Of a DNA stretch of 19,253 nucleotides, positions 11,051 to 17,507 are shown piece after piece. Made by a program: the position numbers and the translations under genes. The notes beneath the pieces are model-generated. The model saw only the letters and a program-made list of their open reading frames with translations. It was not told the origin of the DNA and searched no databases. Position 1 is the stretch's first letter. The number at the start of each line of letters is the position of its first letter. The stretch is from the NCBI GenBank assembly GCA_013331805.1, contig DUFS01000033.1:1-19253 (forward strand), given 5' to 3'. Origin of the DNA: Candidatus Micrarchaeota archaeon (GTDB lineage: Archaea > Micrarchaeota > Micrarchaeia > Anstonellales > Anstonellaceae).

Positions 11051-11461
11051 CTAAACGAGTTTTTCATCCTCCTCAGTCATTTTCTTCCCCAGATACTTGT
11101 AAACAGCCAGCTTCATCACTTTCAGCGGAAGAAGCGCGCATTTCAGGCGAGCCGGGCCCGGGTCGATTCCCAATGTTGAAAGGAGCTGCTCTTTTTTGAA
11201 TGCCCTCGCGCGCTCAATGGACTTTCCGGCAATTTCTTCAGTCAGCATCGAAGCGGAAGCAAGGCAGATGGCGCATGCGCTCCCCTCGAATTTTATGTCG
11301 GATACGCGGCCGTTTTCGAATGTCAGCTGGTATGTTATGTCATCGCCGCAAAGCGGGTTGGAGTCATGCGCTTCCGAGTCTGCGTGAGCGATTCTTCCCC
11401 TGTTGCGCGGATGCTTGTAGTGGTCGAGTATATTCTCCTTGTACATGTCTGCAGTTGCCAT
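11051..11461 (-). CDS. sufU: Fe-S assembly U-type protein (SufU/IscU family)
   Basis: Y.ENILDHYKHPRN.G, NPLCGD, G.ACAI.LASAS and PARLKCALL. Follows sufS. Confidence 0.9.
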   Translation of the reverse strand: MATADMYKENILDHYKHPRNRGRIAHADSEAHDSNPLCGDDITYQLTFENGRVSDIKFEGSACAICLASASMLTEEIAGKSIERARAFKKEQLLSTLGIDPGPARLKCALLPLKVMKLAVYKYLGKKMTEEDEKLV

Positions 11462-11469
11462 ATTCCCAC

Positions 11470-12678
11470 TCAGCCCAGGGTTTTCTGAGCGCGCTTCATG
11501 GAGGCAGCCAGCCGGTGCACTTCCTCTTCGCTGTTGTAAATGTAAACGCTCGCCCTGCAGGTGGCAGGTTCGCCCATCAGCTTCATCAGAGGCTGCGCGC
11601 AGTGGTGGCCGGTGCGGATCGCTATCCCGTCCTCATCTGCAAATTGCCCCACGTCGTGTGCGTGCAGCTTGCCTATGTTGTACGAGACTATCCCCGCGCC
11701 TTTTTTCGGGCCGTAAAACTTTATTCCAGGAATGCCAGAGAGTTTTTCCCTGCAGTAGGATGCCAATTCCTGTTCGTGCTTCTCAATTTTTTCCATGCCG
11801 ATTTTTTTCAGGTAATCAACTGCTGCCGAAAGCCCGACCGCGCCTGCAACGTTCGGGGTGCCTGCCTCGAACTTGTAAGGCGGCGAATTCCATGTGGCGC
11901 CCTCGAACGTCACCTCCTTTATCATGTCCCCGCCGACAAGGAAGGGAGGAAGGGTTTCCTGCAGATCCCTTCTCATGTAAAGCACGCCAATCCCTGTTGG
12001 CCCCAGCATCTTGTGGCCTGAAAAGGCAAGGAAGTCGCAGCCAATCTTTCGGACATCGACTTTCATGTGCGGAACGGACTGCGCCGCGTCCACGCAAGCG
12101 AGGGCTCCGGACTCATGCGCAAGCCTGCACAATTTCACTGCATCGTTTATCGTTCCAAGCACATTTGAAACGTGCGTGAAGGAGAAAACTGCTGGGCGAA
12201 TTGCAAGCTCCTGCGGCATGTCCTCCATGCAAAGTGCGCCGTAGCTGCGTATTTTCGCGTATTTTATTCTCAGATTGTGCCTTTTTGCATTCATTTGCCA
12301 TGGAACGATGTTGCTGTGGTGCTCCATCTGGGTAAGAAGGATGCTTGAGCCAGGTGCAGCCTGCTGGCAGACGACAGTTGCAACAAGATTCAGCGACTCG
12401 GTCGCGTTTCGCGTGAAGATTATCTCTTCCTGCCTTGCGCCTATGAACGCGGCGATGTTCTTGCGGGCCGATTCGTATCTTTCGGTTGCGTCCGCGACAA
12501 GCCGGTATGCGCCCCTGTGGGGGTTTGCGTTGAAATTCCGGTAATAATCATCCATTGCCTCCATTACTTGGCAGGGCTTTTGCGTGGTTGCCGCATTGTC
12601 AAGGTAGGCCAGGGCACTGCCTTTGAATTTCCTTTTGAAGATGGGGAAATCCTTGCGGATTTTTTCTGGGTCAAGCAT
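11470..12678 (-). CDS. sufS: Cysteine desulfurase SufS (group II)
   Basis: IRKDFP, YLDNAATTQKP, MEHHSN, FSGHKMLGPTG, FEAGTP and RTGHHCAQP. Start reset to ATG 12678. Confidence 0.95.
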   Translation of the reverse strand: MLDPEKIRKDFPIFKRKFKGSALAYLDNAATTQKPCQVMEAMDDYYRNFNANPHRGAYRLVADATERYESARKNIAAFIGARQEEIIFTRNATESLNLVATVVCQQAAPGSSILLTQMEHHSNIVPWQMNAKRHNLRIKYAKIRSYGALCMEDMPQELAIRPAVFSFTHVSNVLGTINDAVKLCRLAHESGALACVDAAQSVPHMKVDVRKIGCDFLAFSGHKMLGPTGIGVLYMRRDLQETLPPFLVGGDMIKEVTFEGATWNSPPYKFEAGTPNVAGAVGLSAAVDYLKKIGMEKIEKHEQELASYCREKLSGIPGIKFYGPKKGAGIVSYNIGKLHAHDVGQFADEDGIAIRTGHHCAQPLMKLMGEPATCRASVYIYNSEEEVHRLAASMKRAQKTLG

Positions 12679-12679
12679 T

Positions 12680-13663
12680 TTAGTCCCTTGGGAAAATGGA
12701 GTGCGCATCCTTTTCAAGCTCTGCCTCAAGCGTGCCAAGCGCGCCTGCATCCATCTCGCTTCTTGAAATTAGGTCGCGCAGGAAACCCTGCAGCACCAGC
12801 AGCTTGCTTTCGCTCTCGCCTATTCCCCGCGAGCGCAAATAAAACAGCTCCTCGTCCTGGAGCGGCGTCATGGAAGAGCCATGCCCTGCAGCAACATCCG
12901 AATTCCTCACGAAAAGCATGGGTATTACCTTGGAAATGGAATTCTCGGAGAGGAGCAGGCTCTTTGCAAGAAGGTGGGTGTCCGAGCCTGGGGCGGCCTG
13001 TTCTATCGTCACCTTGCCATCCACATTGACCTGCGAATTGCCGGCAGTCGCGTACTTGAAGACCGAGCGGGAGTATGTGTCAGGCGCTGTGTGCAGGTGG
13101 TCGGAGTCCAGGAAGAATTTCTGGCCTTGCCTGGCAAGGCCCGCCTCAAAGTGTTCGCAGCGGCTTGCGCGACGGTCCTGGAGGAACAAGAACGCATCGC
13201 GCTTCTCATTGCCGCCAATGTTGGAATTGAGGAATTTCAGCTGCGAGCATTCGCCAAGCCTGGCCACCAAACCAACAGTAGACAAAGCTTTCTCATTGTC
13301 AGCCTGCAAAAAGCAGCAGTGCGCAACCGCTAATTTGGAAAGGAAAATGCCGCGGCATTCCCTGGTGCTTTCCTGAAGCGCGGTCCTGTAAAACACGGTT
13401 GAATGGGAGTTTTCGCCGAATATGAAAAATGTCCCGAAGGCTCTTCCAGGCGGGCTTTTCCTTTCAACAGTGATTTTTGCCCTGGCATGCGGCTCCACCA
13501 CGATTACCGTTCCTTCTTCCATTCCGGCAAGCGCGCTTCTGTATCCCTCAGGGGCATTTTTCACATCCTCTGCACTGAGGATTTTCCCAAGAGCTGTGTC
13601 CTCGAGCGCTTCATGATAGGTGAGAAGCCGGGCATTTCCCTCAATCGTTGTTTCGGGCTTCAT
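12680..13663 (-). CDS. sufD: Fe-S assembly protein SufD
   Basis: Beta-helix-like body with C-terminal LLLS, P.L....DVAAGHGS and LFYLRSRGI...GF. ATGA overlap with sufB. Confidence 0.88.
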   Translation of the reverse strand: MKPETTIEGNARLLTYHEALEDTALGKILSAEDVKNAPEGYRSALAGMEEGTVIVVEPHARAKITVERKSPPGRAFGTFFIFGENSHSTVFYRTALQESTRECRGIFLSKLAVAHCCFLQADNEKALSTVGLVARLGECSQLKFLNSNIGGNEKRDAFLFLQDRRASRCEHFEAGLARQGQKFFLDSDHLHTAPDTYSRSVFKYATAGNSQVNVDGKVTIEQAAPGSDTHLLAKSLLLSENSISKVIPMLFVRNSDVAAGHGSSMTPLQDEELFYLRSRGIGESESKLLVLQGFLRDLISRSEMDAGALGTLEAELEKDAHSIFPRD

Positions 13664-15087
13664 CCAACCGACCCTTCCATTTCCATTTCAATGAGCCTGT
13701 TCATCTCAACAGCGTACTCAAGGGGCAGCTCCTTTACGATTGGCTCAATGAAGCCTCGCACAACAAGCGAAAGCGCCTCATCCGCATCCATCCCCCTGCT
13801 CATCAGGTAGAAAAGCTGCTCCTCGGAAATTCTTCCTACCGATGCTTCGTGGCCGATTACCGCGTCCTTGCTCCTGATATCCATCACAGGGACGGTCTCT
13901 GCCTTTGACTTCGAATCGGCAATGATGCTGTCGCAGCGCACGTTTGATTTCACGCCAGTGCAATGCGCGCCCACCGAGAGCAGCCCCCGGTAGCGGACCA
14001 CACCGCCCTCCTTGCATATGCTCTTTGAGACTATTTTTGAAGACGTATTCGAGGCCATGTGGAATACCTTCGCCCCGGTGTCCTTGACCTGCCCCTCACC
14101 TGCAAGCGCGATGTTCAAATGCTCTGCGCGCGCGCCCCTGCCAACCAGTATGCTGCATGGGTATAGCATGGTGACTCCTGAGCCAAGCGTGCCGCCCACC
14201 CATTCCATTACCGCATCCTGCTGCACAATTGCCCGCTTGGTATTGAGGTTGTAGACATTCCTGCTCCAGTTCTGTATGGAGGTATAGCGGGCGCGCGCCC
14301 CTTTTTGCACGAATATTTCCACGACCGCGGCGTGCATGGAGTCCTTTGTGTAGTGCGGGGCGGAGCAGCCCTCAATGTACTGCACCTGGCTGCCCTCCTC
14401 TGCAATGATCAGGGTGTGCTCGAACTGGCCGAACCCCGGATAGTTCATCATGAAGTAAATCTGGAGCGGCATGGGCACCTTCACGCCCGCAGGGACGTAA
14501 AGGAAGCTTCCGCCGGACCAGAACGCCCCGTGCAGGGCGGCAAATTTGTTGTCAGTGGCAGGGACGCAGCGGTTCATGAAGTATTTTTTCACAAGTTCCG
14601 GATGCTCGCGCACGGCGCTGTCCATGTCGGTGTAAATCACGCCAAGGTCAGAGATGTTGCTTCGCAGGCTCTTGTAGAGCACTTCCGAGTCATACTGCGC
14701 GCCCACTCCTGCGAGAAACTTTCTTTCTGCTTCGGGTATGCCCAGCTTCTCAAACGTGTTCTTTATTTCAGCCGGCACCTCGTCCCAGCTGTTGGGCTTG
14801 TAACCCTGCCCTTTTGGGCGCACAAATCCGACAATGGCTGAGAAATCGAGATGCGACAGGTCGGGTCCCCAAGTTGGGAGGGGTTTTTTCTCGAATATTT
14901 CAAACGACTTTATCCTGTGCCGCCTCATCCAGTCTGGCTCCTCTTTCACTTCCGATATTTCCTTTACAAGCTCAAGCGTGAGGCCGGCATGCTCCGCCCG
15001 GTAGCCAACGTGAAGCTCGCTGTCACTGCCCGGCGCATCGCGCAGCAGCGCATCCCGCCCGTATTCCTTCAGCACGTTTTCATCCAT
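13660..15087 (-). CDS. sufB: Fe-S scaffold protein SufB
   Basis: KEEPDWM, GVGAQYDSE, WSGGSFLYVP, GQFEHTLI, EGCSAP, RCD, HEASVG and ELPLEYAVEMNRLI..EMEGSVG. Confidence 0.97.
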   Translation of the reverse strand: MDENVLKEYGRDALLRDAPGSDSELHVGYRAEHAGLTLELVKEISEVKEEPDWMRRHRIKSFEIFEKKPLPTWGPDLSHLDFSAIVGFVRPKGQGYKPNSWDEVPAEIKNTFEKLGIPEAERKFLAGVGAQYDSEVLYKSLRSNISDLGVIYTDMDSAVREHPELVKKYFMNRCVPATDNKFAALHGAFWSGGSFLYVPAGVKVPMPLQIYFMMNYPGFGQFEHTLIIAEEGSQVQYIEGCSAPHYTKDSMHAAVVEIFVQKGARARYTSIQNWSRNVYNLNTKRAIVQQDAVMEWVGGTLGSGVTMLYPCSILVGRGARAEHLNIALAGEGQVKDTGAKVFHMASNTSSKIVSKSICKEGGVVRYRGLLSVGAHCTGVKSNVRCDSIIADSKSKAETVPVMDIRSKDAVIGHEASVGRISEEQLFYLMSRGMDADEALSLVVRGFIEPIVKELPLEYAVEMNRLIEMEMEGSVG

Positions 15088-15099
15088 GTCTTCACCAAA

Positions 15100-15846
15100 T
15101 TACAAAGCCGGGGCAGCCGCATTTATCCAGCTGTATCCTTTCTCCTCGAGCTGCAGCGCCAGCCTGCCGTCTCCGGATGCGATTATCTGGCCGTCGCGCA
15201 TGACGTGCACGCGATCAGCCTTCAGGTTCTTAAGTATGCGCGCATAGTGCGTGACTATTATCACCGCAGTGTCTGGCTTGCGAATGGAACTAAGCGTTTC
15301 CGCAATTTTTCCAAGAGCATCCACGTCGAGACCGGAGTCAAGTTCGTCAAGCATCGCCACTTTTGGCTCAAGCACCGCAAGCTGGAGTATCTCGCTTCGC
15401 TTTTTCTCCCCTCCTGAAAAGCCCTCGTTCACGCCCCTTTCAGCAAACGAGCTTTCCATCCCAAGATCCCTCATCTTGCCTTTCAATATTTTCTCAAACT
15501 CCGCAACAGACACTTCCTTTCCGTGGCGCGCCACATAGGCTCTCCTCAAAAAGTTCGACAGCGTGACGCCTGATACTTCGTTTGGATGCTGGAAAGCAAG
15601 GAAAAGCCCTGCGCGAGCCCGCTCGTGCGGCTTCATCGCAAGCAGGTCCTTCCCGTCGAATGCAGCTGCGCCCTCCACCCTGTATTTCGGATGCCCCGCA
15701 AGCGCATTCAAAAGCGTGCTTTTTCCCGAGCCGTTCTGGCCCATAATCACGTGCACTTCGCCTGGGTTTATGGCAAGCGACAAGCCCTTTACGATTTCCT
15801 TGTCCTCGGCAAACGCCCTCAGGTTTTTTATTTCAAGCAAAGCCAT
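15100..15846 (-). CDS. sufC: Fe-S assembly ABC ATPase SufC
   Basis: GQNGSGKST, GLFLAFQHP, NEGFSGGEKKR, LDELDSGLDVD and THY. Start at ATG 15846. Confidence 0.96.
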   Translation of the reverse strand: MALLEIKNLRAFAEDKEIVKGLSLAINPGEVHVIMGQNGSGKSTLLNALAGHPKYRVEGAAAFDGKDLLAMKPHERARAGLFLAFQHPNEVSGVTLSNFLRRAYVARHGKEVSVAEFEKILKGKMRDLGMESSFAERGVNEGFSGGEKKRSEILQLAVLEPKVAMLDELDSGLDVDALGKIAETLSSIRKPDTAVIIVTHYARILKNLKADRVHVMRDGQIIASGDGRLALQLEEKGYSWINAAAPAL

Positions 15847-15860
15847 CCAAACACACCCGT

Positions 15861-16193
15861 CTAATGCGACATGCAAATTGCGCACGGGTCGCCCTTACCC
15901 AATTTTGACCCTTTGGCAATGACGATTATCTTTGCAAGTTCCGAATTGATTCTTTCCCCTTTCACCCTTCCGGATGCGATCTTTTTCGCAAGCAGTCCAC
16001 AGGCTTCCTTTGTCGCAGTGCCCAGCTTTCCTCCCCCCCGCTTCCCGGACAAGTACTGCGAGACTGCCGCGCTGGTAGTTCCCAAAGAAGACGCAATTTT
16101 GTTCTGGGGCACCCCAGCCTTTCCCATCCCAACAGCAATCTCCCTGGAGATGGCTGGAAGCAGTTTCCAGTGCACGTCCGCGCAAGGCAGCAT
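15861..16193 (-). CDS. Archaeal HTH transcriptional regulator (COG2522-like) with Cys ligands
   Basis: MLPC....WKLLPAI.REIA, XRE-type HTH Q..IAS.LGTT.AAVSQYLSGKRG, and C-terminal CAICMSH. SD AGGTGAG supports ATG 16193 (110 aa). Confidence 0.85.
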   Translation of the reverse strand: MLPCADVHWKLLPAISREIAVGMGKAGVPQNKIASSLGTTSAAVSQYLSGKRGGGKLGTATKEACGLLAKKIASGRVKGERINSELAKIIVIAKGSKLGKGDPCAICMSH

Positions 16194-16204
16194 GATCTCA
16201 CCTT

Positions 16205-16218
16205 TTAACAATTGTTAA
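16205..16218. promoter_or_regulatory. Perfect 14-bp palindrome, candidate operator of the SUF operon
   Basis: TTAACAATTGTTAA lies between the minus-strand TATA box (TTAAATA, 16241-16235) and the regulator SD. Confidence 0.6.
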
Positions 16219-16234
16219 TTTCCCGAACAATGAG

Positions 16235-16241
16235 TATTTAA
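16235..16241 (-). promoter_or_regulatory. TATA box of the regulator-SUF operon
   Basis: TTAAATA on the minus strand, ~42-48 nt upstream of ATG 16193, consistent with a short SD-containing leader. Confidence 0.55.
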
Positions 16242-16301
16242 TCCCAACCTACCCGCCAGGGGTTAGCATAGCGTTTTAATCACGCCCATTCACCGTTTGC
16301 C

Positions 16302-16864
16302 ATGGTATTTATGTCGAAATACGGATTCGTGACCAACACAGTCCTAAAAGCATCGAGTAACCTAACAGACAGTTCGGAAGCAAGGAAATCAAACGTTTTT
16401 GCGGTTAAACTCGAAAAATACCTTCTTGCTTCGTATAAAGAAGAAAGAATTTTATCTTCGAAATTTCAGCCCAGGAAAATATTCACAAGATTTCTGCCCA
16501 TGAACGACGATCTGGGAAAAAGCCGTGAAATTACGGGCCAGTTGAAGAAAGAGGCTGCAGATTCCTTCTATGAATTGTCCGAAGAAAGTCGAGAAAAAAT
16601 CGGAAAAGCCCTGGACAACTTTTTTCGAAAAATGCTTATCGGAACAATGCAGCAACATGGGGCGGCATAGTGGCCTGTGCGGTTCTTGGCTTGTCCCTCG
16701 TCGCATCCTACGTCCGGGCTCACTCAGCAACGAAATGGCATTGGCTGGCTTGGGGTATCGGCACGGTGATATTGGCCACAACTGCGTTATGGCATGCTTT
16801 GAAAATCCCAAAATACAATTTTGCTGAGGATAAATTCAGAGAAGCAACGGAAAAGGCTACTTGA
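16302..16864 (+). pseudogene. Hypothetical membrane protein split by a -1 frameshift (or two coupled genes, 16302-16670 and 16670-16864)
   Basis: One extra base in T6 (16620-16625) or A5 (16628-16632) joins ...ALDNFF to NAYRNNAATWGGIVACAVLGLSLV...WHWLAWGIGTVILATTALW (2 TM helices). TTTTAAT at 16274-16280. Confidence 0.5.
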
Positions 16865-17507
16865 ATATTTTTCCCGTCTCCTCGGCCCAGAACAACAAGT
16901 CCAAATGCCCAATCGGAATGCCGAGACTCTCGCAGAATTTTTCCATCCTCTTTTCGATTTGAAGATAGCGCTTTGGAGTCAGGCTTTTCGGAAGCCTTCC
17001 AATCGCTCCGTGGCGCCTGAGATTCTTCAGTATGTGCCTGTCCAGTATGGCTATCGAGCTTCCTCTTCCGACATTTCTCAGGTAATGACTGGCTTCCTTC
17101 CAGCCGATTCCCTTCACGTTTTTCATAAGCTCGCTGCGTGCGTGGTATTCGCTTCCGTCGAATGTGAGCTTTTTAAGCAGTGCAAAGCCGTCTACACCCA
17201 ACTTTTCCCTTGCCTCCACAAGATATGCAGCCTTGTTGTTGTGGAAGCGGGTCTTTTTGGAAAGAATCGCCGCGATTTCTTCCCCCGAGCCCTTGAAAAG
17301 CAGCCCCTTTTTTTTCAACTCCCGAATTGCCTCATCGCAGGAAAACGCCTTGCTCTGGGGAGTCAGTATGCAAAAAGAAAGCTCCTCGAATAGAGCAGTG
17401 CCGCCTTTTTTCCCAGTTAGCTCGAATTGGAGGAGGCGCTCTGTTATCTCGTTTTTTCTTTTCTCGTATTTTTCCAGAACTTCTGCGCTTCCCTTTTGTT
17501 TTTCCAT
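16857..17507 (-). CDS. ogg: 8-oxoguanine DNA glycosylase/AP lyase (archaeal Ogg2 type)
   Basis: FEELSFCILTPQ, RFHNNKA, HhH KGIGWKEASHYLRNVG, ILDRHIL and C-terminal LDL..W..ETG.IFK. Confidence 0.93.
   Translation of the reverse strand: MEKQKGSAEVLEKYEKRKNEITERLLQFELTGKKGGTALFEELSFCILTPQSKAFSCDEAIRELKKKGLLFKGSGEEIAAILSKKTRFHNNKAAYLVEAREKLGVDGFALLKKLTFDGSEYHARSELMKNVKGIGWKEASHYLRNVGRGSSIAILDRHILKNLRRHGAIGRLPKSLTPKRYLQIEKRMEKFCESLGIPIGHLDLLFWAEETGKIFK

Follow-up and report, generated by a model that had tools for sequence, protein, structure and literature searches.

We describe an archaeal suf operon whose first gene, encoding a 110-amino-acid helix-turn-helix (HTH) protein (P0001), is preceded by a perfect 14-bp palindrome, TTAACAATTGTTAA. 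Protein and palindrome, conserved together lineage-wide, are a strong candidate for an archaeal regulator of Fe-S cluster supply, and comparison of orthologous loci strongly supports the pairing of this regulator with this predicted operator. The feedback regulators of bacterial Fe-S assembly (IscR, SufR and RirA) are well studied. No characterized archaeal counterpart of them was found in the accessible portions of the literature on archaeal suf, SMS/MIS, COG2522 and XRE-cysteine desulfurase, and the available parts of four articles (PMC12192291, PMC8351635, PMC13066941 and PMC7585200) describe neither a dedicated archaeal regulator of Fe-S assembly nor the P0001 family. Literature searches returned no published characterization of the family.

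The window, by which we mean the whole 19,253-nucleotide stretch of DNA that was analyzed, belongs to a genome (G000) of 1.19 Mb that is 91.5% complete. Translation of the minus strand of positions 15700-16500 revealed an open reading frame of 110 amino acids that runs from an ATG at 16193-16191 to a TAG stop codon at 15863-15861. The regulator gene was placed at 15861-16193 (minus strand; coding 15864-16193) on the basis of this translation, an alignment of 19 orthologs and an AlphaFold2 model. A Shine-Dalgarno-like GGTGA box is found at 16198-16202 (minus strand), 4 nt 5′ of the ATG, and GGTGA or GGAG-like boxes are present at the equivalent position in many orthologous loci. Five suf genes follow on the same strand and were identified by Pfam matches: sufC (15100-15846; ABC_tran, 9.6e-23), which starts 14 nt past the regulator stop codon, sufB (13660-15087; SUFBD_core, 6.1e-77), sufD (12680-13663; SUFBD_core, 1.3e-36), the cysteine desulfurase gene sufS (11470-12750; Aminotran_5, 3.9e-147) and a gene for a SufU-type scaffold or sulfur-transfer protein (11051-11461; NifU_N, 9.1e-30). 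Because the listed start of sufS overlaps sufD, its true start may lie further downstream. The resulting order, regulator-sufCBDSU, with gaps of at most 14 nt or small overlaps between genes, bears out the first-pass annotation of this DNA, which had put a 110-amino-acid HTH protein at the head of a SUF operon. Identity of sufC among orthologs in related loci is 61-87%.

The same annotation had called the operon acquired, and this part of its description is not supported: the GC content of the operon (0.53-0.56) is in the range of the remaining window, which gives recent horizontal acquisition no compositional support, and the arrangement is lineage-wide. Divergent from the regulator gene lies a 122-amino-acid open reading frame (window positions 16302-16670, plus strand), a putative gene for which no Pfam or NCBIfam match was obtained; a 108-bp intergenic region is common to this frame and the regulator gene. 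No Rfam family matched within 15500-16900 at E up to 1. Elsewhere within the window Pfam recognized an Rpb7/RpoE-like gene, which together with the source names of homologs (Parvarchaeota, Anstonellaceae) puts the window in a DPANN archaeon.

The palindrome occupies positions 16205-16218, between the start codon of the regulator and a TATA-like box, ATTAAATA (16235-16242, minus strand; it contains TTAAATA at 16241-16235), located 16 nt upstream of it. The half-sites are TTAAC and GTTAA, with a centre-to-centre spacing of about 9 bp. When the usual archaeal TATA-to-start spacing is applied to the TATA-like box, the predicted transcription start falls near 16210-16215, that is, inside the palindrome. 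None of 18 RNA runs is listed as covering the locus. Both the position of the palindrome downstream of the box and its placement over the expected transcription start had been pointed out in the first-pass annotation; both hold, and this position, 16 nt past the box and over the expected start, fits repression. Matches to the palindrome with no more than two mismatches were counted in the window: one was found against 0.03 expected, and at least one arose in 6 of 200 shuffled sequences. An isolated AACAAT hexamer (ATTGTT on the minus strand), previously read as a partial half-site, is indeed present at 16226-16231. It is absent from that place in the 21 other orthologous loci, was rejected as an auxiliary half-site and is probably without function.

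Sequences upstream of the regulator gene were compared in 22 orthologous loci, the window's own and 21 others, one of the latter coming from a genome classified in another family. Either TTAACAATTGTTAA or a one-base variant of it was found in every locus: 16 have the exact form TTAACAAT[TC]GTTAA, four have TTAACAATTGTTAT and two have TTCACAATTGTTAA. The information content of the core is 1.86 bits per position, compared to 0.26 in the 25-nt flanks, and the operator is kept though the regulator proteins of these loci share just 48-67% identity with the query. The distance from the end of the palindrome to the start codon is 6-33 nt in 21 loci and 155 nt in one (L013), and the best TATA-like octamer ends 13-18 nt before the palindrome in 11 of the 22. 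A second, near-complete site was detected at two loci (L008 and L021). At L013 (G022:C2), an insert of about 140 nt separates the TTCACAATTGTTAA operator from the start codon of the regulator; this insert has several short inverted repeats, is absent from the closely related L014 and may represent either a structured leader or a small inserted element.

A profile of the regulator matched 30 of 61 related genomes; within the genus it matched 20 of the 22 other genomes. Of the 21 loci other than the window's own, 20 have sufC directly after the regulator gene; the contig of the remaining locus ends 87 bases past that gene. Beyond the genus, eight distant homologs that represent further genera and families of the order have palindromes of the ATAAC-N3-GTTAT type abutting the TATA box, and seven of the eight are directly upstream of sufC. 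Of the features that the first-pass annotation had singled out for checking in homologs, a position upstream of sufC and retention of the palindrome (here 22 of 22 loci) are thus observed. One ortholog of the genus type, L002 (E 2.7e-61), lies together with an exact operator on a 1.8-kb contig (G056:C191) of a genome classified in another family of the order. That genome also carries a second, distant copy of the regulator, and L002 could be due to bin contamination or gene transfer.

Copies of the operator were next sought across the genus. Sixteen of the 23 genus genomes have the exact 14-mer, while a reversed-pattern control gave no match in any of them. All 22 distinct exact copies are located at promoters. 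Fifteen precede the regulator (regulator-suf promoters), four precede genes of FTR1 iron permeases at three promoters (G000, G013 and G015), two precede nitroreductase-family genes (G010 and G019) and one precedes a DtxR-family gene (G010). A weight-matrix scan of the window's own 1.19-Mb genome reached 27.3 bits at two sites only, the suf promoter and the FTR1 promoter (contig C55, 8595-8608), the next site scoring 13.5. FTR1 was found in 9 of the 23 genus genomes, and the operator precedes it in three of the eight with a readable upstream region; the link between FTR1 and the operator is not general in the genus. At the FTR1 promoter of G015 (L050, G015:C6; and L095) two operator copies, TTAACAATTGTTAA and TTAACAATCGTTAA, lie 5 bp apart, an arrangement that suggests cooperative binding.

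A wider sample of the phylum was also analyzed. At E up to 1e-6 the profile matched 160 of 301 genomes, a tally in which two genomes marked as unpublished (G228 and G080) were counted; they entered no other analysis. From the listed phylum matches 40 loci, second copies included, were taken to span families. Thirty of them adjoin sufC/sufB(/sufD) or a pair of sufS-like and sufU-like genes, a count which, like all counts across related genomes given here, is not made up of phylogenetically independent cases. At least three cysteines after residue 60, a CxxC among them, are present in all 30 proteins from Fe-S-linked loci compared to 4 of the 10 from unlinked loci. The pattern TAAC-N2-5-GTTA occurs within 110 nt upstream of the regulator in 26 of the 40 sampled loci, and the exact TTAACAAT[TC]GTTAA is found upstream of 8 of these 40 regulators. 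In the 211,838 bases of the sampled loci the pattern has 33 matches, 27 of which are at the regulator's promoter. As a background, it has 15 matches in the 1.19 Mb of G000; 13 of these, other than the two operator sites, look like chance occurrences, mostly away from promoters as judged by eye.

The unlinked loci are of several kinds. Four Cys-poor paralogs (L085, L087, L090 and L091) directly adjoin glutamate dehydrogenase genes and are without a TAAC..GTTA site; they look like a second branch of the family with other target genes. Two further Cys-poor paralogs are near radical-SAM genes. Among the Cys-rich proteins, those of L066 and L068 adjoin DUF2085 and thioredoxin/DsbA-like genes, while L069 (G125:C32) has a TTAACGATTGTTAA site and is divergent from an HMA-domain gene and a P-type ATPase gene, which suggests that this operator type has a metal-efflux target as well. 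The neighbours of Cys-rich L084 are related neither to Fe-S clusters nor to metals. One Thermoplasmata member of the family, P0042, for which a single locus was obtained, is flanked by PhzF-like and NAD(P)HX-repair genes and does not adjoin Fe-S genes, and the Fe-S link is therefore claimed for the sampled phylum only.

Translation gives P0001 the potential ligand residues C4, H8, C65, C104, C107 and H110. In 19 orthologs that are 57-75% identical to P0001, residues C4, H8, C65, C104 and C107 are invariant, as is the D102-P103 dipeptide. All four cysteines are thus where the first-pass annotation placed them, and conserved. Its H110 is present at the C-terminus but varies among the 19 orthologs and, unlike H8, is no conserved ligand candidate. 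The ligand pattern varies by subfamily: C65 and H8 are specific to the P0001 subtype, being shared by a 44%-identical representative (P0024), whereas other subtypes have an N-terminal Cys, a CxxC and further Cys after helix 5, with the pattern CxxC...CxH...CxxC. Elements common to the family are an N-terminal PC(E)xxVW(Y)xLPAIRxELA helix and a recognition region AAVSQYLxxKRG; the C-terminal Cys pattern CxxC...C...CxxC is found in most members. The recognition helix of the XRE-like HTH corresponds approximately to residues 41-49.

Database searches placed P0001 outside described families. At E up to 10, Pfam returned only YdaS_toxin (E 0.12) and NCBIfam only an unrelated model, TIGR03879 (E 0.11), and a sequence search of the PDB gave nothing better than E 0.59. 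P0001 itself had no HTH_3 (PF01381) hit in the Pfam scan; many of its relatives exceed the HTH_3 cut-off of 23, among them P0041 (34.9 bits) and P0036 (31.5 bits). An exhaustive phmmer search yielded 235 cluster representatives at E up to 1e-3, and a profile search yielded at least 1526 clusters at E up to 1e-5. Parvarchaeota and Anstonellaceae are among the source names of homologs. The few named clusters have generic names only ('transcriptional regulator', 'helix-turn-helix domain-containing protein'), with Woesearchaeota and Nanoarchaeota among the sources. Features of SufR or Rrf2 proteins, which the first-pass annotation had already described as lacking, were not seen in the Pfam and NCBIfam scans either. 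By these searches P0001 belongs neither to SufR nor to Rrf2; its family, XRE-like in its HTH, is a distinct and new one and a candidate for a known regulatory role.

A high-confidence AlphaFold2 model built from 133 sequences has six helices (pLDDT 92.1, pTM 0.85), with a long extra N-terminal helix and a Cys-bearing tail and without a separate ligand domain. Foldseek found no match to the model in the PDB at E up to 1e-3. In a wide structural search only residues ~6-57 matched HTH domains (N-domains of DeoR, KorB, ParB and LsrR; Z up to 6.6), and no solved structure covering the whole of P0001 was found by sequence or structure search. The top profile hits are tandem two-HTH forms of 214-237 amino acids (P0027 and P0171-P0185); P0027 has two matched stretches, and these forms are apparently single-chain pseudo-dimers. 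In a 506-amino-acid metagenomic protein, P0164, the family HTH and Cys motif are fused to a class-V aminotransferase (cysteine desulfurase-like) domain.

Taken as a whole, the reading that we favor, and consider on balance probable, is that P0001 is a dimeric autorepressor of regulator-sufCBDSU which is freed from DNA upon loss of a Cys/His-bound cofactor, probably an Fe-S cluster. Two copies of P0001 would bind TTAACAATTGTTAA via their XRE-type HTH motifs, in successive major grooves; a dimer is suggested by the palindrome, by its half-sites ~9 bp apart, by the conserved recognition helix and by the natural tandem two-HTH forms. Binding of P0001 to this operator is, from the comparative evidence, very probable. 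Known archaeal repressors act by occlusion after the TATA box or over the transcription start. Since the operator is 16 nt past the TATA-like box and over the expected start, bound P0001 would block RNA polymerase recruitment, and its own gene and the five suf genes would be repressed. That P0001 acts as a repressor is likely, and, with the operator in front of its own gene, it would be part of an autoregulatory circuit.

The cofactor would most likely be held by C4, H8, C65, C104 and C107, which come from the N-terminus, helix 4 and the C-terminal tail. Among possible cofactors we put first an Fe-S cluster supplied by the SUF machinery, and the cofactor of P0001 is quite possibly such a cluster. 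Holo-P0001 would bind DNA; upon shortage or oxidation of clusters its cofactor site would become empty and P0001 would leave the operator. Fe-S assembly and iron uptake would then be derepressed, with the negative-feedback logic of SufR, IscR and RirA. The Fe-S cluster leads among candidate cofactors because the five invariant Cys/His residues are drawn from three separate segments, because the Cys-rich state tracks Fe-S assembly neighbourhoods, because one family member, P0164, is fused to a cysteine desulfurase, and because the window's own genome has a DtxR-family gene and no Rrf2 or Fur hit. With a DtxR-family gene present and Rrf2 and Fur hits lacking, iron itself may have another sensor.

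Several other explanations were weighed against this one. The palindrome might be the site of another factor, or might have no regulatory role, for instance as a rare palindrome of the restriction type, and it does contain a restriction-like CAATTG. However, it co-occurs with the regulator gene genus-wide, and in its TAAC-Nx-GTTA form it is found phylum-wide at the regulator's promoter, which accounts for 27 of the 33 matches within the 212 kb sampled. Its spacing to the TATA-like box is conserved, the Cys-poor paralogs are without it apart from one N5 variant, and the leader has no Rfam family match; we regard an element unconnected with P0001 as very improbable. If P0001 does bind the palindrome, what it responds to might be oxidation rather than cluster supply. 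In such a thiol or zinc-thiolate redox switch the Cys/His site would carry free thiols or zinc and respond to oxidants or disulfide stress; once oxidised, the repressor would come off its site, and the SUF system, which tolerates oxidation, would be induced. Thiol switches such as SurR and Spx typically have CxxC motifs. The operator copies at nitroreductase genes in two genomes, the DUF2085 and thioredoxin/DsbA-like neighbours of Cys-rich L066 and L068 and the retention of the Cys/His motif by ThiN-fused relatives are all in line with a switch of this kind. The core targets, on the other hand, are Fe-S assembly genes (30 of 40 sampled loci) and iron uptake, and five invariant residues in three segments resemble a cofactor site more than a simple disulfide pair, so that a redox switch appears unlikely.

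A direct metal sensor like Fur and DtxR, in which Cys/His would bind mononuclear Fe(II) or a similar ion as the co-repressor, would account for operators before FTR1 genes in three genomes and before a DtxR-family gene in one, and for Cys-rich L069, which has a TTAACGATTGTTAA site and is divergent from the HMA and P-type ATPase pair. But the FTR1 link is limited to three of eight genomes, the conserved linkage is to cluster assembly genes and not to transporters, and the window's own genome already has a DtxR-family regulator. Fe(II) sensors mostly use His, Asp and Glu ligands, and a site made up of cysteines plus a histidine would be unusual among them. A sensor of the metal itself is in our view quite improbable. 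Still less probable is a regulator that senses nothing, with a structural zinc site, and either buffers the operon by negative autoregulation or answers a partner such as a Suf component. P0001 is very small and without a separate ligand domain. The Cys motifs are retained by ThiN-fused as well as cysteine-desulfurase-fused relatives; the Cys/His motif after the HTH is kept in the ThiN-fused P0285, too, and could be a structural zinc site since such relatives presumably sense a thiamine-related ligand; its presence there speaks most strongly for a structural role. Against this, the Cys-poor paralogs next to glutamate dehydrogenase genes imply that the fold does not need the motif, and the Cys-rich state follows Fe-S or metal neighbourhoods (30 of 30 linked proteins compared to 4 of 10 unlinked). 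A repressor released when its Fe-S cluster is lost therefore stays our preferred reading of P0001.

An extension of this reading to the lineage is put forward tentatively. Archaea of the Micrarchaeota-like DPANN may have a lineage-wide sensor of Fe-S status in which the N-terminus, helix 4 and C-terminal tail of an XRE-type HTH protein are stapled by an Fe-S cluster and which acts, through a deeply conserved TAAC-N3/4-GTTA operator, on SUF-type and cysteine-desulfurase/U-scaffold operons, as an independently evolved counterpart of IscR and SufR. Such a protein would have a fold new among cluster-binding transcription factors, with P0001 as its first example. The system is minimal: a 110-amino-acid protein, a 14-bp site and a target set of two promoters in a 1.2-Mb genome. 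If the Cys/His site does hold a cluster, it would be an independent evolutionary solution to sensing Fe-S supply, and would reveal how iron uptake and cluster assembly are kept in balance in reduced DPANN archaea. With the conserved operator as a guide, target genes can also be predicted for hundreds of uncultured genomes.

Comparison with known regulators reveals both shared and distinct features. P0001 has neither a Fe_dep_repress (PF01325) nor a FUR (PF01475) domain; in its own genome, a separate DtxR-family gene is located at C62 and Fur was not found. XRE/Cro-type repressors (HTH_3; phages 434 and lambda) are small helical proteins with an HTH, too, and as dimers they bind short palindromes, as is predicted for P0001. 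In contrast to them, P0001 is below every Pfam threshold and has the extra N-terminal helix and the Cys-bearing tail. The nearest functionally labelled family, as judged by sequence similarity, is that of ThiN-fused archaeal regulators, which we take to be ThiR-type thiamine regulators and whose N-terminal DNA-binding region is homologous to P0001. P0285, which combines ThiN and HTH, is 36% identical to P0001 over 92 amino acids (E 4e-14) and matches the family profile with E 3.1e-20; it was the one protein returned by a search for longer proteins (a weak search type). HTH_3+ThiN clusters are also among the ESM Atlas structural neighbours of P0001 (TM ~0.8). Unlike these regulators, P0001 ends at residue 110 without a ThiN domain (PF10120) and is linked to suf genes instead of thiamine genes.

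IscR and other Rrf2-family regulators (NsrR, RirA and RisR) are Fe-S-cluster-dependent repressors of Fe-S assembly genes, and RirA additionally controls iron uptake genes. Their fold class differs from that of P0001, in which no Rrf2 domain (PF02082) was detected at E up to 10. No Rrf2 protein was found in the whole of the window's own genome (91.5% complete), while a control search had hits in 14 of 14 reference genomes, 12 of them above the cut-off. The ligand set of IscR consists of three Cys and one His, with which the C...CxH...CxxC pattern of the wider P0001 family may be compared. SufR, as described in the accessible parts of its literature, is a [4Fe-4S] repressor and autoregulator of suf operons in cyanobacteria and actinobacteria. 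P0001 has no sequence relationship to SufR by Pfam and NCBIfam and differs from it in Cys spacing; it is also an XRE-like HTH protein of just 110 amino acids, whereas SufR is larger and of winged-helix architecture. What P0001 has in common with SufR, to the extent that the same sources cover it, is the location of its gene at a suf operon, a palindrome at its own promoter, conserved cysteines and a presumed negative-feedback logic acting on Fe-S supply.
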